Positions 3,366 to 50,586 of a stretch of 64,000 nucleotides of DNA are shown here, piece by piece. The DNA is from Minisyncoccota bacterium (GTDB taxonomy: Bacteria; Patescibacteriota; Minisyncoccia; Phycocordibacterales; CAIZLB01), in assembly GCA_021734945.1 (NCBI GenBank), contig JAIPIA010000001.1:308415-372414 (forward strand), in the 5' to 3' direction. Both the position numbers and the translations under genes were made by a program. The notes under the pieces were generated by a model. That model had not been told where the DNA came from and did no database searches. It saw only the letters and a list, made by a program, of their open reading frames with translations. Position 1 is the first letter of the stretch. Each line of letters opens with the position of its first letter.

Positions 3366-4751
3366 CTAATCTTTTAAAAAATAATTATTTATTTCATTAA
3401 AAATTTCTATAATTCTCGCTTCATATTTCGTTTTTATATTTTTACCACTGGTATCAATTAATCCACTGACACCGTCTCTATGTTTAACTTCAGGTTTATC
3501 TCTAATATCGTTAGTGGGGATACATACAAAATTATATTTAGGAAATTCCTTACTGAGCGAACATGCTAAACTAGACATATTATTATCTAGTATGGATGTA
3601 ATTTTTTTAAAACCTAAATCTTCAAGCATTTTAATTACTTTTCGTGTATTTGGGGCACCTCCAACGCCCCACCCATAAAATACTCCATTAGTCTGAATTT
3701 GTTTTATTTCAAGAATCTTATTTAAAAAGACAACGTCTTCTTGTCCTTCTGTTAAGATTATATTATCTTCAAGAAAGAAAATTTCACTAGCATCCAAACC
3801 GAGAATATGTGGATTATTTAAGTTATCTAAAAAAGGAGTAATATCATTAGTGGTTTTTTCTTCTAATTGATAAATTTTTGTTCCAGAAGTCTCTTTAACT
3901 GTTCTTGCAATTCGTCCACCGTTTAAAATTGAAGGCCAACTGACAAAAAAAGGAGAATGAGTAGAGATTATGATTTGTCTATCTTTTGAATATTCTAAAA
4001 GTAATTTTAATAATTTTCTTTGGAGTGACGGATGTAACGACAACTCTGGCTCGTCAATAAATATTAAGTCTTCAGATCGACTATCATACAAAGCATCAAC
4101 AATTGTAAAAACACTCAATAATCCTTCTCCGGCCCCGTCGCTATTATGAGAAGAATTATCATTAATAAACTTTAAATAATAATTTCCATTATCTGCCTGA
4201 TCAATGTTCCAGTTCGGAGAGTATCCTAAAACTTTACTCAATTCCGAATTAAAAGTTGTTGGATCTTTTTGGATTTGGAAAAGTCTATGTGAAAAATTAT
4301 CAAACTGTGAACCTCTAACTGCTTGTAGATTTGAAGTGCTAATATATTGGTTACGATCATAAATACTTTTACCAAAAAATGGGCTGAATGTTCTTCTTGA
4401 TGGTAAAGTTAAGAATTTTACTTTCTCTTTTTCAAGTTTATTTGAAATATACTCTGTTTCGCTTCCTCCATTAGATGTTGTTTTAAGAGTTAAGCTATTA
4501 TCGTCTATGTCGAAAATTGATATTTCAATTTTATCACCAGCTATTTTATTTCTTTTACCTTCCGTAAAGCTCGGGGTTTGATTTTGGGATATAGCTCTGA
4601 ATGCCTCATAAATTGTTGATTTACCGGAGTTATTAGGGCCAACAATAACTGTCAATCCACTACCATTATTTCCATTTTTTGGTACAGCAATATTTAACGT
4701 TTGCTTTTCATTAAAACCTCTTAAGCCTAAAATTTCTATTTTTTTGTACAT
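3366..4751 (-). CDS. OLD-family ATP-dependent endonuclease-like protein (N-terminal ABC-type ATPase + C-terminal Toprim-like region; GajA/OLD-like)
   Basis: Walker A GPNNSGKST, Walker B/D-loop LIFIDEPELSLHP, H-loop ISTHSP, then an acidic ILTEGQEDVVFL Toprim-like segment. The likely start is MYKKIEIL (4751); the longest ORF reaches 4787. Confidence 0.6.
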   Translation of the reverse strand: MYKKIEILGLRGFNEKQTLNIAVPKNGNNGSGLTVIVGPNNSGKSTIYEAFRAISQNQTPSFTEGKRNKIAGDKIEISIFDIDDNSLTLKTTSNGGSETEYISNKLEKEKVKFLTLPSRRTFSPFFGKSIYDRNQYISTSNLQAVRGSQFDNFSHRLFQIQKDPTTFNSELSKVLGYSPNWNIDQADNGNYYLKFINDNSSHNSDGAGEGLLSVFTIVDALYDSRSEDLIFIDEPELSLHPSLQRKLLKLLLEYSKDRQIIISTHSPFFVSWPSILNGGRIARTVKETSGTKIYQLEEKTTNDITPFLDNLNNPHILGLDASEIFFLEDNIILTEGQEDVVFLNKILEIKQIQTNGVFYGWGVGGAPNTRKVIKMLEDLGFKKITSILDNNMSSLACSLSKEFPKYNFVCIPTNDIRDKPEVKHRDGVSGLIDTSGKNIKTKYEARIIEIFNEINNYFLKD

Positions 4752-4803
4752 AGCGTATACAACGAGCGTACGAGTCCTATGTAGCATTCGTACTAGCTCT
4801 TGT

Positions 4804-4904
4804 TGGTTGCGGAGATGGGATTTGAACCCATATCTTTTCCTTTCGAAAAGCTCTAAATAAAAGCTCTTTGAAAGAGAAAGGTGCTACCATTACACCACTC
4901 CGCA
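4804..4904 (-). tRNA. Atypical 101-nt tRNA-like gene (canonical acceptor, D and T arms, encoded CCA; best register gives anticodon UUC with ~31 nt where the variable arm belongs)
   Basis: Acceptor TGCGGAG/CTCCGCA, T-arm ATGGG-TTCAAAT-CCCAT, D-arm GTGT..GCAC. The anticodon arm TTTCT-CTTTCAA-AGAGC closes with only about 4 pairs. There is an internal 9-nt direct duplication AGAGCTTTT. Confidence 0.45.
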
Positions 4905-9142: not shown

Positions 9143-9324
9143 TGTAATAAATTATAACTTACTTTTAGTAACCCTAACGTTTGATTGATTAAGTGCGAAT
9201 CAAGACGTTGTATTAAAAGGCTTATGAGAGGATTGAACTCTGCGATAAACCACCTGCGTGTGCAACAGTTTGTCTGAACAAACATTACATGTGCAGGATT
9301 TTTTCCTTCGACTCATGACGCACC

Positions 9325-9525
9325 TTACAGCGTGCAATGACCACCGCAACCTGGACCAGGTATTGGTAGCATATTTTTACGCTTCAGGTTTACTCTCATC
9401 GCTTCTTCTTTTGCCATTTGGTGCTTCGCCTCAGTACTTGAAATACTTTTTGGCTGTGCGACCATATGTGGTGAAATCGAACCGATGCTTCCATTCTGAC
9501 CTAACGATGCACTTGCGTTTTTCAT
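9325..9525 (-). CDS. Small hypothetical ORF (66 aa, ends CGGHC); higher local GC
   Basis: ORF only; no recognisable family. Confidence 0.2.
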   Translation of the reverse strand: MKNASASLGQNGSIGSISPHMVAQPKSISSTEAKHQMAKEEAMRVNLKRKNMLPIPGPGCGGHCTL

Positions 9526-9864
9526 AGTGTGTTTGGATAGTTTATTGTGAATGATACGAACCGAAAAAAGAACAAAGCCAGCTCATCGAGAGCTGGCTTG
9601 TATTATTCACTAGCATTTGCACCAGTATGAGTGCGAAGCTATTTTGTGAATTGGGTATTGAGTGAATCAACACAAGTCAGATCTCGAGAATATGAAAAAG
9701 GAAGCAGGTGCCAAAACCGCTTTGAAATATTCTTATGTCGATAACTTGTGCTGAAAAATTTCTGCATGAGTGCAATACTATGCTAGGTTAAAAATTCTGT
9801 CAAATATGGGTGTGTATAAGAAAAGAAAAACACCCACCTTTCGATGGATGTTTTTCTTTAAGAA

Positions 9865-10115: not shown

Positions 10116-10202
10116 TGGTGCGCAGGGAAGGATTTGAACCTTCGAAGCCCATTGGGCGACAGATTTACAGTCTGTTGCGATTGACCACTCCGCCACCTGC
10201 GC
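10116..10202 (-). tRNA. tRNA-Tyr (GTA) with long variable arm, CCA encoded
   Basis: Anticodon arm CAGA-CTGTAAA-TCTG, T-arm GAAGG-TTCAAAT-CCTTC, acceptor GCGCAGG. Confidence 0.8.
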
Positions 10203-10268
10203 ATGAGTGCCATAGTAGCATTTTATTTGAGTGGTTTCAACCCTAAACTTTTATATACATGTACCAAG

Positions 10269-10340
10269 TATCCTTTGTATATCCCTTATGTATCCCTTAT
10301 GTATCCGTTGTGTATCCTTTAGATACTTGATACATGTAGA
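10269..10340. repeat. Five tandem 11-bp units (TATCCNTTNTG; TATCC at 10269/10280/10291/10302/10313) ending in GATACTTGATACATGTA
   Basis: Exact 11-bp phasing read from the sequence. The same terminal 18-mer recurs at 24045-24062. Confidence 0.7.
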
Positions 10341-16100: not shown

Positions 16101-16259
16101 GTTTTGCAGTATCAATTTTATAGCAGATGGATTTTATAGGTAGTTTTTGTGTATCCCAAAATTTCAAAAAAGAAAAAACACCGACTTTCGACGGGTTTTC
16201 TCCGTTGAAGCGGTGCTTAGATTTGAGTTGATAGTCATAACAGTTAGTCACGACATTTA

Positions 16260-18841: not shown

Positions 18842-19681
18842 TTACTTACTATTTAAAATATTTTTACAGAAACTTCTTCTATGTTCATCCGACAAACCAA
18901 ACTTTTTCAATGCAAGCCTATGTTTAAGAGTTCCATACCCTTTGTGCACATCAAATTCATATACTGAATATTTAGTATTTTTTGATAACTTTTTCATACG
19001 AGCATCTCGATTAACTTTGGCATAGACTGAGGCAAGTGATATTACGAGCTCTTTTTCATCACCTTTTATAATAGTTTTTTGTGAACCTACAGGAAGTTCA
19101 GTTTTTAATCCCCCATCGAGTAAAACATTCAATTGTTCGAAAGATACTCTCAGCGCCGATAAAGACTCTTCTGAAGATACCTGTTCCACTTGTTTAGAAA
19201 TTTTTGATATTTTCTTTAAGTTTTTATTTACCAGGTCTTTTATACAAACAGCAATTCCCTTTTTATCAATTTCTTCTGCCGACGCACTACTTGTACATGC
19301 ATACAAAAATACTTCATTCACAAGTTTTTGAACTACTTTATACCAAAATTCTCGATCAGATTCTTTCATCTTTTTTGAATCAACTCCGATTGGGTATTCT
19401 TTTTTTACTCCTCCATTTAGCTCACCTGAAGTTCCCATCAATTTTTCTCGAAGATTTGCATAAGTTCGAGCAACACTACCATCAATTAAAAATGCAACAG
19501 CTCCCACAGTTACAGGCCCAGCAAGTGGACCACGACCAACTTCATCTATTCCAACCAACCATTTTTTGCATTCCATAAAATCTGCAGATTTTATGGAATT
19601 TACTACGCTTCCATCGGACTTTGAGAGCGTCTTGGATTTATCCCCAGTTTTGTGATTTTTGGTTTTTTTCATAAAAGTCAT
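18842..19681 (-). CDS. rnhB: Ribonuclease HII with N-terminal extension and internal insertion
   Basis: GIDEVGRGPLAGPVTVGAV, DSKK, SLASVYAKVNRD, HKGYGT..H. Likely start MKKTKNHK (~19672). Confidence 0.75.
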   Translation of the reverse strand: MTFMKKTKNHKTGDKSKTLSKSDGSVVNSIKSADFMECKKWLVGIDEVGRGPLAGPVTVGAVAFLIDGSVARTYANLREKLMGTSGELNGGVKKEYPIGVDSKKMKESDREFWYKVVQKLVNEVFLYACTSSASAEEIDKKGIAVCIKDLVNKNLKKISKISKQVEQVSSEESLSALRVSFEQLNVLLDGGLKTELPVGSQKTIIKGDEKELVISLASVYAKVNRDARMKKLSKNTKYSVYEFDVHKGYGTLKHRLALKKFGLSDEHRRSFCKNILNSK

Positions 19682-19702
19682 AAAAAATGTATACTTAAGT
19701 AT

Positions 19703-22700
19703 ATGGCTTCACCTGATGCATCACAAGCGACCAAACCTGAATCTTACGGCCGATTCGTACACTTACACACACATAGTCACTATAGTCTTCTGCAAGCATT
19801 ACCTAAGACGAAAGCACTCGTAAAAGCTACTATTGAACGTGGTATGCCAGCACTTGCTCTAACAGATGCTGGAAACATGTATGGAACTATTGAGTTCTAC
19901 AAAGAGTGTCAGAAGCAAGGTATCAAACCTATTATCGGAGTGGATTTTTATGTTGCTGTTCGAACTCGTTTTGATAGAGAACCACGTATCGACAACAAAA
20001 GAAGTCGCCTTGTGATGCTAGCTAAAAATTCAGAAGGCTACAGAAACCTAATTAAACTAGTTACAGCATCAAGTATCGAAGGTTTTTACTATAAACCACG
20101 TATTGATAAGGAGCTTATCGAAAAGCACAAAGAAGGTCTTGTTGTGATTAGCCCATCTTTTAGTGGAGATATTGCATATGCACTCAAAGGAAACAATATT
20201 GAACATGCAAAAGAAATTGCTGCATTTTATAAAACACATTTTGGTGATGATTTTTATCTTGAAGTAACACATCATCCTGAGGTTGAAGATCATCAAGAAG
20301 CAATGATTAAAGTCGTGGAGTTTGCAAAAAATGAAGGTATAAAACTCGTTGCTGCTCATGACACGTACTATATTAAACCAACAGACAAAAAGGCACGCGA
20401 GACACTTGTTTCTGTACAAGACCAATTCGGGGCAAAGAGTCGTGAAGATAATGCTGACTTTTCTTTTATCACACAAGAGCAAGCTGAAGAATATTTCAAA
20501 AACTTTCCTATTAATTCTCAAAAAACAAATGATGGTGGACTACAAGGTTCTGGAGCTGAGATGAATCTTGAAGACGATGGATTCGATGACGGTGAAGACG
20601 ATAACTTTGATCCATTTACAGGAGAAGTTATTAACTCTGAAAAAGAAGTTGGTGGCGCTAAAAAGTTTAAAGAAGATCAAAAAGCAGCTGATGCACAAAA
20701 AATCATAGACGCACGAGGAGAAACTATAAACATTGAGTATGCGTTAGATTCATGTAAAGAGATTGTTGATAAATGTAATCTTGAAATCGCACTTGGTAAG
20801 TGGCTCTTCCCTGAATTTACAGTAGAGAGTGGACGTACTGCAGACGATGAACTCCGTGTACTTACATATGCAGGTCTTGAGCGACGAAAAGTAGAACTAA
20901 CAGATGAAGTAAAAACACGTATCGATTACGAACTTGATGTTATTAAAACAAAAGGTTATTCACCATACTTTCTTGTGGTAGCCGATCTTCTACACTACGC
21001 ACACAATAACGGTATTCTCACAAACATTCGAGGATCTGTAGCGGGCTCTATGGTTACGTATCTTACTGGTATTACAAACGTAAACGCTATTGATTATAAA
21101 CTCCCCTTCGAACGATTCTTGAACCCTGAGCGACCCTCTGCTCCCGATATCGATATGGACTTTGCCGATAACCGTCGAGATCAGATGATTCAATATTCTC
21201 GAGAAAAATACGGCGCTGACAAAGTGGCCCAGATTGGAACCTTCGGAACAATGATGGCCAAAGGTTCTATTCGTGACGTGGCACGAGCCATGGGTTTTCC
21301 ATATACACTTGGTGATCAAATTTCTAAACTTATTCCTATGGGCCAACAAGGTTTTGCAATGACAATCGAGCGTGCAATGAATGAAACTCCAGAATTTAAG
21401 GAATTATACGACACTAATCCAGACGTTCGAACGATAGTGGATATGGCAAAACAAATTGAAGGTTGTGCAAGACACATCTCTGTGCATGCCGCAGGTGTAG
21501 TAATTTCTCCAATTCCACTTACTGATATCGTGCCTCTCCAGCTCGATCCAAAAGCAACAGATGGTAACAATACAGGAAGAATTATTACCCAGTACGACAT
21601 GCGTTCTGTAGATGAAAACAACGCTGGACTTTTGAAATTCGACTTCTTGGGAATTAAAAACCTTTCTCAGCTTTCTGATGCTATAAATCTTGTAAAAATA
21701 ATTGAAGGCATCACGATTGACCTAGATGAAATTTCTCTTGAAGATAAAAAGACATTCGAAATGCTTGCACGTGGTGAGACTGAAGGTTTGTTCCAATTGA
21801 ACGGTTCTGGTATGACTCGTTTCTTGAAAGAATTGAAACCAACAACTATTCATGACATCAACGCCATGGTGGCTTTGTATCGACCTGGACCAATGGAAAC
21901 TATTCCAGAATATATTCGTCGAAAAAATGATGCATCGCTCATCAAATACGAAGATCCACGAATGGAAAAATATCTTAAGGAATCATACGGACTCATCGTA
22001 TATCAAGATGACTTGCTCTTTTCTGCTATTGAACTCGCTGGATATTCATGGCTTGAAGCCGACAAGTTCCGAAAAGCTGTAGGTAAAAAGAACCGAGAAG
22101 AAATGGCAGCACAGCGCGAAAAACTTACTGAGGGTATTATCAAAAAAGGCCAGACAAAGGCTTTTGCGGATAGACTTTGGAAGCTTTTCGAACCATTCCA
22201 AGCATACGGATTCAACAAAGCTCATGCCGCAAGTTATGGAAACTTGGCGTACAAGACTTCTTATATGAAGGCTAACTTCCCTGCTATATATATGGCGGCA
22301 GTCCTTACAGGTGCACATGGCGACACAGAAGAAATTTCTATTTACATCAATGAATGTAAGCGACTTGGTATTCCTGTACTTGCTCCAAACATTAATGAAA
22401 GTTTTGGTGACTTCACAGTTATTAAAGGTGAAAAAACTGGTGGAGGTATGGATGCTCAAGGTAATTTTATTCCAGAAGTTCAGCACGACAAGATTCGTTT
22501 CGGACTGTATAGTATTAAAAACTTTGGTGAAGGTATTGGTGATGCAATTATCGCGGAGCGAAAAAATAATGGACCATTCACAACTCTTGAAAATTTCCTC
22601 GATCGAGTGAAAGATAAAAATCTCAACAAAAAATCTCTTGAAGCACTCGTAAAAGCTGGAGCGATGGATGATTTTGGCAATCGATCAGTAATGCTCGCCA

Positions 22701-23626
22701 ACCTTCCTGATTTACTTGAATATAATAAAGAGCAACAGAAGCGACCTGATAACCAAACTTCCCTTTTTGGAATGTTTGATACGGCTCCAGCGGCAAGTGC
22801 TGGTGCAGATAGTGGCAGTAACGGTGGCAATAATAGCGGAAATAATGACGCTGGCAACAATGGAAGCAACGGCACAAATTCAAAAGCAGTGAAAATTGGT
22901 GGATATGGTGAACATCTCAAACTTCGTACTGACAATATTGAAGGAGGGCTAGCTACACAATCACAAATGCTTGCGTGGGAAAAAGAATTACTCGGTCTCT
23001 ACATCACCGGTCACCCACTCGATAAGTATCGGGAAATTCTGGATAAACGAGATATTAATATTGAAAAATTGAAAAAAGTTATTGAAGCTGATGCAGAAGA
23101 ATTTGCTGCAAAGGTTGCCAAAGAAGCAGACGCAAAATCTGCGCTAGAATCAATGGACCGTCAGAAACGTGAATTTGAAGAAGCAAATGGTATTGTAAGT
23201 GATATTGTGAGTGGTTTGGATGGTTCTACTGATGGTGGCGACAAGAAGGACGTCAAAGATGAGAAAAAAGATACTAAGAATACAAAATCAGGAGGAGGCA
23301 ATTCTGGAGAACCTAAAAAACGTTTCAATAAAGAGGAATGGAAAAAGCAGATGCAAGCAAATCAACCAAAGGAACGCCAAGTTGTAGTTGCTGGTATTAT
23401 CGAGGAAGCTAAAGAAATTGCCACAAAGAAAGATCCTACTATCCGTATGATGTTTTTGAGACTTGCAGACTTTACAGGTTCTATTGAGGTCGTAGTATTT
23501 CCAAAAACCTATGAACAATTCAAATCAGTCCTAGTTCCTGAAGCATGCGTCGCAATCAAAGCAAAGACTTCAAGTCGAAATGGTACGCCGAGTTTGATTA
23601 TAGATACCGTGAAGGTGTTGAATTAA
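19703..23626 (+). CDS. dnaE: DNA polymerase III alpha subunit
   Basis: PHP domain FVHLHTHSHYSLLQALP, polymerase core and OB fold; 1300+ aa with N/G-rich and K/E-rich inserts. The ORF opens at 19652; the likely start is MASPD (19703). Confidence 0.9.
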   Translation: MASPDASQATKPESYGRFVHLHTHSHYSLLQALPKTKALVKATIERGMPALALTDAGNMYGTIEFYKECQKQGIKPIIGVDFYVAVRTRFDREPRIDNKRSRLVMLAKNSEGYRNLIKLVTASSIEGFYYKPRIDKELIEKHKEGLVVISPSFSGDIAYALKGNNIEHAKEIAAFYKTHFGDDFYLEVTHHPEVEDHQEAMIKVVEFAKNEGIKLVAAHDTYYIKPTDKKARETLVSVQDQFGAKSREDNADFSFITQEQAEEYFKNFPINSQKTNDGGLQGSGAEMNLEDDGFDDGEDDNFDPFTGEVINSEKEVGGAKKFKEDQKAADAQKIIDARGETINIEYALDSCKEIVDKCNLEIALGKWLFPEFTVESGRTADDELRVLTYAGLERRKVELTDEVKTRIDYELDVIKTKGYSPYFLVVADLLHYAHNNGILTNIRGSVAGSMVTYLTGITNVNAIDYKLPFERFLNPERPSAPDIDMDFADNRRDQMIQYSREKYGADKVAQIGTFGTMMAKGSIRDVARAMGFPYTLGDQISKLIPMGQQGFAMTIERAMNETPEFKELYDTNPDVRTIVDMAKQIEGCARHISVHAAGVVISPIPLTDIVPLQLDPKATDGNNTGRIITQYDMRSVDENNAGLLKFDFLGIKNLSQLSDAINLVKIIEGITIDLDEISLEDKKTFEMLARGETEGLFQLNGSGMTRFLKELKPTTIHDINAMVALYRPGPMETIPEYIRRKNDASLIKYEDPRMEKYLKESYGLIVYQDDLLFSAIELAGYSWLEADKFRKAVGKKNREEMAAQREKLTEGIIKKGQTKAFADRLWKLFEPFQAYGFNKAHAASYGNLAYKTSYMKANFPAIYMAAVLTGAHGDTEEISIYINECKRLGIPVLAPNINESFGDFTVIKGEKTGGGMDAQGNFIPEVQHDKIRFGLYSIKNFGEGIGDAIIAERKNNGPFTTLENFLDRVKDKNLNKKSLEALVKAGAMDDFGNRSVMLANLPDLLEYNKEQQKRPDNQTSLFGMFDTAPAASAGADSGSNGGNNSGNNDAGNNGSNGTNSKAVKIGGYGEHLKLRTDNIEGGLATQSQMLAWEKELLGLYITGHPLDKYREILDKRDINIEKLKKVIEADAEEFAAKVAKEADAKSALESMDRQKREFEEANGIVSDIVSGLDGSTDGGDKKDVKDEKKDTKNTKSGGGNSGEPKKRFNKEEWKKQMQANQPKERQVVVAGIIEEAKEIATKKDPTIRMMFLRLADFTGSIEVVVFPKTYEQFKSVLVPEACVAIKAKTSSRNGTPSLIIDTVKVLN

Positions 23627-23651
23627 GATCAGCCTTAAACTGAAAATTTAA

Positions 23652-23894
23652 TTAATCGAGAATATCTTCAAGCGGCATTGCTTTAAATTTGTATTTATTA
23701 ATGTCTTTTCTAGACCGGCTAATCACTTCTTCAAGATAAGGGTTCATATCGTCGTCAGCCGTGAACTTCACCTCACGTGTCCGTATGAGCTGCCTTAGAA
23801 AAGCATTGATAACACCACTCAATGTTAATCCCATATTATCTATAATCATCTGAGCTTCCCTTTTGACTCTTGCGTCAGCCTTAATGTGAATCAT
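23652..23894 (-). CDS. RelB/DinJ-family antitoxin-like ribbon-helix-helix protein (orphan; no toxin gene adjacent)
   Basis: MIHIKADARVKREAQMIIDNMGLTLSGVINAFLRQLIRTREVKF matches the DinJ pattern. The longest ORF reaches 23918. Confidence 0.55.
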   Translation of the reverse strand: MIHIKADARVKREAQMIIDNMGLTLSGVINAFLRQLIRTREVKFTADDDMNPYLEEVISRSRKDINKYKFKAMPLEDILD

Positions 23895-23992
23895 TGTTGT
23901 CTTTATAGTTGGTCTCATATTTAATATTTAGTCTTGAAGTTAGTTTTAAATTTGATTAAATATGTTTTTAAATATCTTTTGCATATATCAAA

Positions 23993-24120
23993 TATCCAAC
24001 GTGTATCCCTTTTATACTGTTTATGTATCCATAGTGTATCTATTGGATACTTGATACATATACATCAATACTCATTACCTTGATACACATAACTTGATAC
24101 ACACAACTTGATACACCCGC
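23993..24120. repeat. Second TGTATCC repeat array: 11-bp-phased units at 23993/24004/24026/24037, the 18-mer GGATACTTGATACATATA, then three tandem AACTTGATACAC units
   Basis: Read directly. It shares the terminal 18-mer with array 10269-10340 and is flanked by AT-rich DNA (23920-23990 and 24120-24300). Confidence 0.7.
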
Positions 24121-24299
24121 ATCAATTTAATTTTATTTCCATTTTCAGCCAAATATAGTCAATCAAATACGACTCATTCACTCCTAGCCACAACTATAGA
24201 AACATACCAGATCAACATGAAATAGACATAAATTAAATATAAAAAACCTAGCCAATTCATACGCACAAATCTCAAAATATGTGCTAAAATGCCCGTATT

Positions 24300-26138
24300 A
24301 TGAAAAAAGAAACAGACGCGTCTAACGACGCCGTGCACGCTTCAAATAGCGCACAATCAATAGAACATATCAGACACTCGCTAGCTCATCTTCTTGCAAC
24401 CGCAACGGTGAGTTTATATCCTGATACGCTTCTTACGATTGGACCAGCTGTTGAAAACGGTTTCTACTATGACATGGACTTTACTGCCCCACTCAAGGAT
24501 GCAGACCTTCCAGTTATCGAACAGAAAATGCGAGATATTCTCAAAGATTGGACTATTTCAAGTAAAAAAGGCGTAGCACCTGATGCTTGTCATTTCTTAC
24601 ACAAAGAGGTTTCAGTAGACGAAGCACGAGCTTTGTTTGCAAACAACCCATACAAACTTGAACTTATCGAGGAAATTAATGCTAAAGGTGAAAAGATAAC
24701 ACTCTATACAGTAGGTTCTGGAACAGAGTATGAGTTCACAGATCTTTGCCGTGGTGGACATGCTGATGATATGAGTACAATTGATCAAAATTCATTTGCA
24801 CTCACTCGTCTTGCAGGTGCTTATTGGCGAGGTGACGAAAAAAACAAAATGCTCACACGAGTATATGGACTTGCTTTCCAGACTAAAGATGAACTCAAAG
24901 CGTATCAAACGCTCATGGAAGAAGCACGAAAGCGTGATCACCGAATTCTTGGAGAAAAACTCAATCTATTTTGCTTTGATGAATCAATAGGTAAAGGACT
25001 TCCATTATGGCTACCTAAAGGAAATATTGTCAAGGAACAACTAGAAGAATGGGCAAAAGATACTGAAAAGAAATGGGGCTACCAGAGAGTTACAACTCCT
25101 ATTATTACAAAGGAAAACTTATTCTATACATCTGGGCACTTACCTCTTTATAAAGAAAGTATGTATGCTCCTATTCAGATAGAGGATGAGAATTACTACA
25201 TTAAGCCGATGAACTGTCCGTTCCATCACAAGATTTTCTCCGCAAGAATGCGAAGTTACAAAGAGCTTCCTCTCCGTGTTGCTGAATACGGTTGGTGTCA
25301 TAGATATGAAGATTCAGGTAGTCTTTTTGGACTTATGCGAGTGCGAGGAATGCAAATGAACGATGCACATATATATGTTCAGAAAGAAAAGGCTGTTGAA
25401 GAATTTGTTCAAGTCATCAAACTTCATGAGTATTATTATAAAACTCTTGGTATCAAAAACTATGAAATGGAACTCGCTCTCCGCGACCCAAGCAAGATGG
25501 ATAAGTATCATGGAAACGAGGAAGACTGGAAAGACGCTGAACGAATGACAATAGAAGCTATGGAGCAATCCGGGGTGCCTTACAAAGTAGTCCAAGAAGG
25601 AGCTGCTTTTTATGGACCAAAAATGGATTTCCAGATTTTCTCTTCAATAGGACGAGCATTTACAGCATCTACAAACCAACTTGACCTCTACATGGGTAAA
25701 GCATTCGAACTTGAATATGTAGATAATGATGGTGTAAAAAAGACTCCAGCAGTTATTCACAGAGCCCCTCTTGGTACACACGAGCGATTCATTGGTTTTC
25801 TTATTGAGCACTTTGGTGGAGCTTTCCCAGTATGGCTCTCACCTGTTCAGGTAAAGATTGTACCTATCGGCGAACGTCAAATGGAATATGCAACAATTCT
25901 AAACCAAACTCTCCTCGATGCAGACATTCGTGTGGAACTCGATTCATCAAATGATGGATTAGGTAAAAAAATCAGAAGTGCAAAACAGGAAATGATTCCT
26001 TACGTTCTAGTTATTGGAGATAAAGAAATTGAAACAAACACAGTTACTGTTGAAAGCCGAACTGGAAATGAAGGTGCTGTAACTATTGAAGATTTCATAG
26101 GGCGAATTACGTCTGAAATAAAAAACCGAAGTTTGTAA
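24300..26138 (+). CDS. thrS: Threonyl-tRNA synthetase
   Basis: Class II core with HRILGEKLNLF, the zinc-site motif CPFHH and a C-terminal anticodon-binding domain; 612 aa. Confidence 0.85.
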   Translation: MKKETDASNDAVHASNSAQSIEHIRHSLAHLLATATVSLYPDTLLTIGPAVENGFYYDMDFTAPLKDADLPVIEQKMRDILKDWTISSKKGVAPDACHFLHKEVSVDEARALFANNPYKLELIEEINAKGEKITLYTVGSGTEYEFTDLCRGGHADDMSTIDQNSFALTRLAGAYWRGDEKNKMLTRVYGLAFQTKDELKAYQTLMEEARKRDHRILGEKLNLFCFDESIGKGLPLWLPKGNIVKEQLEEWAKDTEKKWGYQRVTTPIITKENLFYTSGHLPLYKESMYAPIQIEDENYYIKPMNCPFHHKIFSARMRSYKELPLRVAEYGWCHRYEDSGSLFGLMRVRGMQMNDAHIYVQKEKAVEEFVQVIKLHEYYYKTLGIKNYEMELALRDPSKMDKYHGNEEDWKDAERMTIEAMEQSGVPYKVVQEGAAFYGPKMDFQIFSSIGRAFTASTNQLDLYMGKAFELEYVDNDGVKKTPAVIHRAPLGTHERFIGFLIEHFGGAFPVWLSPVQVKIVPIGERQMEYATILNQTLLDADIRVELDSSNDGLGKKIRSAKQEMIPYVLVIGDKEIETNTVTVESRTGNEGAVTIEDFIGRITSEIKNRSL

Positions 26139-30927: not shown

Positions 30928-30970
30928 GAAAACCACATGTATGGATGTAATCCCGGATACATGTGGTTTT
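30928..30970. repeat. Conserved hairpin element, copy 1 (stem CCACATGTAT/ATACATGTGG, loop GGATGTAATCCCGG)
   Basis: Related copies at 42244-42270 and 50548-50586 share the 22-mer TGTATCC(G/A)GGATT(A/G)CATCCAT. Confidence 0.6.
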
Positions 30971-42222: not shown

Positions 42223-42243
42223 ATAAGTAAAACCTAAAAATAG

Positions 42244-42316
42244 CCCTGTATCCGGGATTACATCCATGCGATTTCGCGAAATCGTGCCGCGCCACCGTCC
42301 TTACGGCGCGGCCTTT
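42244..42316 (+). terminator. Hairpin-family copy 2 (TGTATCCGGGATTACATCCATGCG) plus rho-independent terminator GCCGCGCCACCGTCCTTACGGCGCGGC + T-run after rpsA
   Basis: Read directly. Confidence 0.6.
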
Positions 42317-50524: not shown

Positions 50525-50547
50525 AAATTCACTCAAAACAAACAAAA

Positions 50548-50586
50548 CACCTTGTATCCAGGATTGCATCCATACAGGGTGTTTTG
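50548..50586 (+). terminator. Hairpin-family copy 3 (CACCTTGTAT-CCAGGATTGCATCC-ATACAGGGTG + T-run) after ftsZ; second terminator at 50623-50655
   Basis: Read directly. Confidence 0.6.

Follow-up and report, generated by a model that had tools for sequence, protein, structure and literature searches.

The closest described relative of the locus discussed here is the DinJ-YafQ toxin-antitoxin pair of Escherichia coli and Vibrio cholerae, in which a short palindrome lies upstream of the gene for a ribbon-helix-helix (RHH) antitoxin and the toxin gene is present. Other RHH proteins, among them omega, ParR and Arc/Mnt, bind arrays of short direct and inverted repeats; ParR of plasmid R1 recognizes 11-bp iterons. 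Omega of pSM19035 binds 7-bp heptads, as cited in an excerpt of the review PMC4803016. The same review presents MqsA as an antitoxin that acts on palindromes outside its own operon, and an excerpt of PMC4996492 describes DinJ as a global regulator. Orphan antitoxins are common in genome annotation, and their roles are rarely known. Here we consider one of them, together with the repeat element beside it, in a 64-kb stretch of DNA from a Minisyncoccota bacterium (GenBank assembly GCA_021734945.1, contig JAIPIA010000001.1). We call this whole stretch the window, and labels of the form L0xx and P0xxx denote the loci and proteins of the relatives compared with it. The element, Array B, lies in the spacer between thrS and the gene of a DinJ-like RHH protein that has no toxin partner. 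We assign a probability of about one half to the reading that Array B is a multi-dimer operator of this orphan protein, amplified and dispersed, to which the RHH protein is predicted to bind.

As in DinJ-YafQ, the RHH protein of the window belongs to the RelB/DinJ family by Pfam and finds its best structural matches among DinJ chains, sister lineages keep a YafQ-family toxin gene directly downstream, and a palindrome lies upstream of the antitoxin gene. In contrast to DinJ-YafQ, the toxin is missing here and the protein has no relative by sequence in the Protein Data Bank (PDB). The site also differs: it is a multi-unit composite of 46-83 bp rather than a short palindrome, its distance to the start codon is 37-108 nt, and other loci carry it too. 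An operator-like palindrome before unrelated genes has likewise been reported for MqsA and DinJ (PMC4803016; PMC4996492, excerpt). MqsA, however, is a helix-turn-helix protein with a short palindrome and a retained toxin, whereas the copies here are long and nearly identical, so that they look duplicated rather than convergent, and any regulation by them is a prediction. With the RHH array binders Array B shares arm units spaced by 7 bp, central units spaced by 11 bp and a ->->(->)n<-<- arrangement beside an RHH gene. This geometry is the one expected for cooperative binding of RHH dimers, which by analogy may occupy it. Unlike the sites of omega and ParR, the array is chromosomal, recurs at several loci and has an unrelated unit sequence; no ParA/ParM partition ATPase gene is present, and the neighbours of the RHH gene are dnaE and thrS. 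REP/REPIN and Correia elements are also short imperfect intergenic palindromes with several copies per genome, hairpin potential and arms kept complementary. The present family departs from them in its low copy number, its recognizable operator core and the one copy fixed beside the RHH gene. No consistent target-site duplication was seen in the flanks read, and no RAYT or other transposase candidate is known, no genome-wide search for one having been made.

Architecture of Array B

The orphan gene and the parts of the element are as follows.

23652..23918, minus strand: orphan DinJ/RelB-type ribbon-helix-helix gene, 88 aa, Pfam RelB PF04221
23983..23999, no strand: left arm ATATATCAAATATCCAA, inverted relative to 24043-24059 (inverted repeat I2, 17 nt, 88% complementary)
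24000..24042, plus strand: centre with four 11-bp-phased units, TGTATCC at 24002, degenerate TTTATAC at 24011, TGTATCC at 24024 and TGTATCT at 24035
24043..24062, no strand: right arm TTGGATACTTGATACATATA, which contains the shared 18-mer
24078..24119, plus strand: three 14-bp tandem copies of the outer right-arm unit AACTTGATACAC, lineage-specific and unconserved

An earlier sequence-only reading of this DNA had described 11-bp-phased TATCC-type units, and these are real: direct reading and counting place TATC[CT] starts at 23993, 24004, 24026 and 24037 in a common 11-bp register. The degenerate middle unit that it listed is present as well but sits about 2 nt off that register, its best match being TTTATAC at 24011-24017. 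The 18-mer GGATACTTGATACATATA occupies 24045-24062 and, as claimed, is shared, recurring with two mismatches in both arms of a second array, Array A (10256-10273 on the minus strand and 10321-10338 on the plus strand). Its three matches in the window compare with 0.03 expected. The three tandem units also proved correct, with TTGATACA starting at 24080, 24094 and 24108 on a 14-bp period. Only two loci in the 64 kb carry at least three in-phase units, Array A with five and Array B with four, and in a shuffle control one of 200 shuffles produced any locus with at least four. The heptamer TGTATCC occurs 13 times in the window against 4.95 expected; five occurrences fall in Arrays A and B, three in hairpin elements, and the remaining five are at chance level. 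The solo copy at 16150 is among the latter, so that only the dispersed copies bear out the suggestion of a genome-wide TGTATCC motif. AT-rich sides were likewise found where they had been described: GC content is 15.6% in 23919-23982, 16-30% in the flanks of Array B and 28% in the whole 381-bp RHH-thrS spacer, against 38% in the window. Such AT-richness is usual for intergenic DNA here and is unspecific.

Comparison with the closest relative, L001, which has about 79-80% DNA identity with the window overall, separates these parts. The Array B element is 88% identical to L001 and the zone of the thrS promoter motif 92%, while the spacers beside Array B are 72-75% identical and the zone of 14-bp repeats only 38%. 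The three AACTTGATACAC units therefore arose recently by duplication of the outer arm unit and are not under constraint. The 80-bp element itself is, to judge from this profile, constrained. Its core CAACGTGTATCC...ATTG matches the single-unit core of related elements, and the centre is, by alignment, an expanded version of a 16-18 bp operator-like core.

Other roles for the element were considered. No Rfam match was obtained in 23600-24400 at E values up to 1, and there is no T-box ahead of thrS. A terminator was ruled out by reading, as no T-run follows the stem on either strand. An outward promoter starting from the arm hexamer TTGATA was also ruled out, as no -10-like hexamer lies 16-18 nt downstream in the copies read by eye. 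The hairpin potential of Array B is weak (z-score about -2).

An orphan antitoxin in a conserved slot

The assignment of the RHH protein rests on a Pfam PF04221 score of 31.1 bits (cut-off 22.4) and on its AlphaFold2 model, in which an N-terminal strand region is followed by two helices and a C-terminal helix. The best PDB folds for this model are DinJ chains of the DinJ-YafQ complexes 9LEW, 4ML0 and 4Q2U (probability 0.94-0.99, E 0.03-0.06), while a search by sequence profile returned no PDB relative. Ten homologues were found in a first search and 965 in a profile search, and a close clade (P0001-P0022) has at least 51% identity. An exact look-up of the window's RHH protein gave no match, and that of L33 matched only a near-identical strain. 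The gene lies between two large neighbours.

19652..23626, plus strand: dnaE (DNA polymerase III alpha), an open reading frame (ORF) of 1324 aa that converges on the RHH gene; orthologues carry PHP, DNA_pol3_alpha and HHH_6
24300..26138, plus strand: thrS (threonyl-tRNA synthetase), divergent from the RHH gene; Pfam tRNA-synt_2b, HGTP_anticodon and tRNA_SAD
24280..24290, plus strand: extended -10-like motif TGTGCTAAAAT, 9 nt before the thrS ATG and about 220 bp from the array

Pfam domains agree with the neighbours named in the sequence-only reading, in the case of dnaE by way of its orthologues, and its remark that the toxin partner is missing holds as well. The RHH stop codon lies 25 bp from that of dnaE with no toxin gene between them, and a tblastn search with three YafQ/RelE relatives found no YafQ-like sequence in the window. 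All relatives examined have the RHH gene in this slot, with dnaE and thrS as its neighbours. The lineages of P0009 (60% identity) and P0023 (49% identity) have a yafQ-family toxin gene behind it; the window, L001, L005, L042, L043, L045, L047 and L051 have none there. L045 belongs to JAGOSK01, the metagenome-assembled genome (MAG) Candidatus Paceibacterota Gw_Eff_bin_316, whose RHH protein is P0014 (70% identity). In at least 14 toxin-less sequences the RHH protein is intact and has a clade-specific conserved C-terminus. Its tail (residues 70-88) reads (K/R)Y(K/Q)F(K/R)AMPFED in toxin-less lineages versus GKLGKPMTLEEAL in toxin-bearing ones, with a clean split between them. The conserved motif means that the orphan protein has been maintained and is not decaying, and such an orphan-type tail points to a partner that was kept or to an interaction newly gained. 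A beta-strand residue, H11 versus N11, was also considered as a marker of toxin loss or of the core and was rejected, since the toxin-less P0014 is N-type and P0023, which has a toxin, is H-type.

On the other side of the spacer, TGTGCTAAAAT is conserved in L001, L005, L042, L043, L045, L047 and L051 and probably acts as a near-leaderless thrS promoter. Promoter-like motifs 7-9 nt before an ATG were seen both here (TGTGCTAAAAT-9-ATG) and at a dinJ-yafQ pair of JAGOSK01 (TTGACA-16-TATACT-7-ATG; L027:1540-1600), which suggests that leaderless or near-leaderless mRNAs may be common in this lineage.

Homology with toxin-antitoxin operators

Toxin-bearing loci carry a compact 30-bp palindrome against the dinJ start codon. 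In L050 it is ATGTATC-TAAAGTATATATATTA-GATACAT (whole operator ATGTATCTAAAGTATATATATTAGATACAT) and in L009 ATACATC-TAAAGTATATACTTTG-GATGTAT (whole operator ATACATCTAAAGTATATACTTTGGATGTAT). These operators are made of TGTATC and AAAGTAT units, as is the element. In JAGOSK01 the copy upstream of the orphan RHH gene reads GTGTGTATCAACTATC-CAAAGTATATACATTA-GATAGTTGATACAC with the core CCAAAGTATATACATTAG, the core in L045b is CCAAAGTGTGTACTTTGG, and another copy reads ...AAGTATC-CAAAGTGTGTACTTTG-GATACTT.... The common class in this genome has the core CCAACGTGTATCCTTTAG, which shares 14 of 18 positions with the operator. The JAGOSK copies thus retain the operator core, and the element therefore amounts to this operator, with its inner GTATC units and its core of 16-18 bp, plus a second arm pair.

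The sequence-only reading had asked whether the array co-varies with the RHH gene. All 10 lineages read have a palindrome of this family upstream of the RHH gene, and its two arms co-vary between lineages: GTATC pairs with GATAC, GTACC with GGTAC (L043, L047 and L051), and in L042 both arms are longer by 2 nt. In L009 and L050 the palindrome directly adjoins the start codon. JAGOSK01 also has a second, complete dinJ-yafQ pair (L027:971-1603; JAGOSK010000002.1), whose antitoxin is 35% identical to the RHH protein of the window. There CCAAAGTATATACTTTGG lies over the -10 of the leaderless promoter-like sequence just mentioned, and other lineages have nearly the same operator core in their dnaE-thrS module. 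Cross-talk of this second module with the orphan RHH protein is possible.

A dispersed family of elements

Array B has one counterpart in the window, which stands before a tRNA gene.

10256..10338, no strand: Array A, second copy of the 83-bp element, with left arm TACATGTACCAAGTATC, five in-phase TATCC units and right arm GATACTTGATACATGTA
10116..10240, minus strand: tRNA-Tyr (10116-10202) with a promoter-like TTGAAA-17-TGcTACTAT at 10240-10212

The two arrays align without gaps over an 83-bp architecture in which four 11-bp units lie between one arm of 17-18 nt and a second, inverted one. Array A is laid out as TACATGTACCAAGTATC [49 nt] GATACTTGATACATGTA and Array B as (ATA)TATCAAATATCCAA [43 nt] TTGGATACTTGATA(CAT), and a profile made from these copies detected no further one in the 64 kb. 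Array A separates the clpB stop codon from the tRNA-Tyr promoter and begins 16 bp upstream of that promoter's -35 hexamer; as a DNA hairpin it has z-scores of -3.9 and -4.4 on the two strands. In the related loci L053 and L054 (JACCDG010179493.1 and JACCDT011494822.1; ClpB 85% identical) an extra 151-aa gene stands between clpB and tRNA-Tyr. There infB-rbfA also lies directly beside DUF4446-aminotransferase-clpB, so that the thrS-RHH-dnaE-rnhB block must be lacking or located elsewhere.

An exact-pattern scan that took one genome from each species returned 24 matches, namely seven in JAGOSK01 (on four contigs), two in JAUPUG01 and 15 singletons. The singletons come from unrelated taxa and all lack the element, as do the matches of metagenome and viral scans, which were chance matches only. 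Profile searches, which covered the fetched loci, added three variants in JAGOSK01 to the seven strict matches, so that this genome has at least 10 copies. The canonical form in related MAGs is a 46-bp palindrome, GTGTATCAAGTATC-CAACGTGTATCCTTTA-GATACTTGATACAC, with arms of 14-18 nt and a single central TGTATCC. Arrays A and B are this element with a centre enlarged by three 11-bp units; the 11-bp phasing is confined to the lineage of the window, and the ancestral form has one central unit within the palindrome. Between JAGOSK01 and the window the element is 94-97% identical over about 35 nt, and the flanking DNA is unalignable apart from a second hairpin family. This identity where flanks no longer align argues for constraint. 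All copies are intergenic, occurring in tandem, convergent and divergent gaps and in both orientations, as in the following examples.

Tandem: between cysS, a membrane-protein gene and dnaB
Tandem: between pyk and the next gene
Tandem: between eno and the next gene
Tandem: upstream of a nusB-like gene
Convergent: downstream of rbfA, facing a pilin-like gene cluster
Convergent: between a CsaA-like gene and the next gene
Convergent: between a 253-aa ORF and rpsT

Independent compensatory changes in the arms within one genome were considered as proof of a hairpin. This argument was weakened, since the arm change in L020b is shared with the RHH-proximal copy and is therefore inherited.

The second dispersed family consists of terminator-like hairpins with the core TGTATCCrGGATTrCATCCATrCA, which includes the TGTATCC heptamer common to Arrays A and B. 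It is found in the window at 30930-30965 (minus strand), 42240-42270 (plus strand) and 50545-50580 (plus strand), and also at L032:4261-4286 and L013:1774-1821. Its JAGOSK01 copies are 85-100% identical even though the flanking DNA is unalignable.

Origin and possible function of the element

Architecture, operator homology, synteny, toxin loss, conservation and dispersal are seen in the sequences themselves, and from them binding by the RHH protein and any regulation are inferred. The following sequence of events would account for these observations. The composite palindrome of Array B would descend from a dinJ-yafQ toxin-antitoxin operator. In the clade of the window yafQ has been deleted and the RHH gene retained, and the operator would have gained a second inverted arm pair to become GTGTAT-S-AAGTATC / GATACTT-S-ATACAC. 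In this species the centre would then have grown from one to four 11-bp units. RHH dimers may bind the (A/T)GTATC units side by side, and the 11-bp spacing would put the central units on one face of the helix, such that Array B could serve as an autoregulatory platform of the orphan antitoxin. This platform would have been copied elsewhere, as Array A before the tRNA-Tyr promoter and as the 10 or more copies of JAGOSK01. The orphan antitoxin would accordingly bind DNA at several sites, and the secondary sites may regulate their neighbours or merely persist. The single slot between dnaE and thrS offers a series in which a complete dinJ-yafQ pair with a compact operator is followed by a toxin-less RHH gene with an enlarged operator and then by an operator scattered genome-wide. 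We go further only tentatively in proposing that a toxin-less DinJ-type antitoxin of a Paceibacterota lineage has been domesticated as a chromosome-wide DNA-binding protein, its operator having been amplified, enlarged through added arms and 11-bp units and seeded in many intergenic gaps, where the sites would now form a regulon or nucleoprotein landmarks. If the RHH protein does bind these sites, they would provide a clear case of a toxin-antitoxin regulator recruited as a multi-target DNA-binding protein. The example would fall in the Patescibacteria, with a tiny and almost unstudied regulatory repertoire and very few transcription factors, and would show that binding sites can spread through duplication instead of point mutation.

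The sequence-only reading had offered two explanations of the array. Its proposal of an operator for the adjacent RHH protein was right in essence but too local. Synteny, the same-unit operators of yafQ-bearing sisters and the palindrome in every toxin-less lineage speak for it, but the element is not locus-specific. It occupies intergenic sites without a fixed relation to genes, which is the dispersed distribution without positional preference that had been named as counting against the idea. The points that weigh against an operator, even a dispersed one, concern position, copying and folding. In toxin-less loci the element lies at variable distances from the RHH ATG (64 nt in the window versus about 108 nt in L001) and therefore has no fixed operator position, and no convincing promoter was located upstream of toxin-less RHH genes. 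Six JAGOSK copies are nearly identical along 46 bp, which resembles copy-and-paste and not independently evolved binding sites, and the majority class in JAGOSK differs from the RHH-proximal copy. Of about 12 dispersed copies, three stand in gaps between convergent genes, where promoters are not expected, and orientation relative to flanking genes is mixed. Canonical copies have a strong single-strand hairpin potential (z -5.9 to -11.3). Arm mismatches are mostly A.C on one strand, or G.T on the other; the strand bias toward G.T-compatible mismatches, about 6-7 to 1, is suggestive only, and the pattern hints at a strand-specific hairpin. A relative with 85% identical ClpB lacks any counterpart of Array A upstream of tRNA-Tyr and shows no element copy in 22.7 kb.

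Several of these observations would suit REP/REPIN- or MITE-like selfish palindromes (MITE, miniature inverted-repeat transposable element) that arose from a toxin-antitoxin operator or inserted beside one and spread independently of the RHH protein. Array B would then be just one copy, with 11-bp units that are slippage products in its loop. This is the main rival and a serious one, although we think it somewhat improbable on balance. Strictly intergenic multicopy placement in every type of gap, near-identity of copies over their full length within a genome and arms that remain complementary through paired changes all fit such repeats, and the four-unit expansion common to Arrays A and B suggests duplication of one expanded copy. 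However, the best-sampled MAG has only about 10 copies, the flanks read show no consistent target-site duplication, and no transposase candidate is known, although no genome-wide search for one was made. The loop is constrained and retains the operator-like core or further TGTATCC units, Array B folds poorly yet is conserved above its flanks, and the RHH-proximal copy is positionally stable in all lineages read. The high identity between genomes with unalignable flanks likewise points to constraint. The operator and REP-like models are compatible and not mutually exclusive. If the RHH protein does not bind, what is left is an operator-born REP-like family that is, to our knowledge, undescribed in this phylum; a literature search on palindromic repeats in Patescibacteria found nothing relevant.

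The sites could instead serve another protein, such as a winged-helix response regulator or a nucleoid protein, that controls translation-related genes, with the RHH protein a bystander; candidate targets would be thrS, tRNA-Tyr-rpmG, rpsT, nusB and infB-rbfA. Winged-helix response regulators bind 11-bp-phased direct repeats, and the central units, direct heptamers 11 bp apart, resemble PhoB/WalR-type boxes. Several neighbours are indeed translation or central-metabolism genes, and Array A abuts the tRNA-Tyr promoter. We nevertheless consider such a protein quite unlikely, as the 11-bp phasing is a feature of the window's lineage only and is derived from a single central unit, the core is homologous to dinJ-yafQ operators, Array B lies far from the conserved thrS promoter motif, and some copies sit between convergent genes.

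Far less probable still is the second explanation of the sequence-only reading, an origin of replication or an iteron array with a DNA-unwinding region, which is wrong. The AT-rich flanks and the short direct repeats near the replication genes dnaE and rnhB speak for it. It was rejected because the DnaA-box scan, the GC skew, the gene content and the copy number all contradict it. No TTATCCACA site with at most one mismatch lies between 23047 and 25717, and DnaA-box-like sites in the window number 26 against 18.7 expected, with neither enrichment nor a cluster. The 20 ORFs scanned, which included all of dnaA size but not all small ones, yielded neither dnaA nor dnaN, and no rep gene is adjacent. 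Within the window the GC skew follows the coding strand, with no switch at 24 kb. The element is moreover multicopy, with two copies in the window and at least 10 in the MAG JAGOSK01, and it goes back to a toxin-antitoxin operator of 30 bp. In practice, phased repeats that have AT-rich sides and lie beside replication genes should not be taken for an origin. The dispersed operator of an orphan antitoxin remains the reading that we favour.

Other features of the window

Three further features of the window were observed. Between an M20-peptidase-like gene and the rpmG terminator, about 650 bp (9160-9800) have no convincing ORF and no Rfam match; a 66-aa ORF ending in GPGCGGHCTL lies there at 9325-9525 on the minus strand, and the region may encode an undescribed RNA or a small peptide. 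At 4807-4904 (minus strand) Rfam recognizes a tRNA of 98 nt (56.7 bits) that ARAGORN does not report and that may have an intron or an unusual structure. A 473-aa AAA_21/AAA_15 ATPase (AbiEii-like family name in Pfam) is encoded at 3366-4787 on the minus strand and is possibly part of a defence or toxin-antitoxin-like system.

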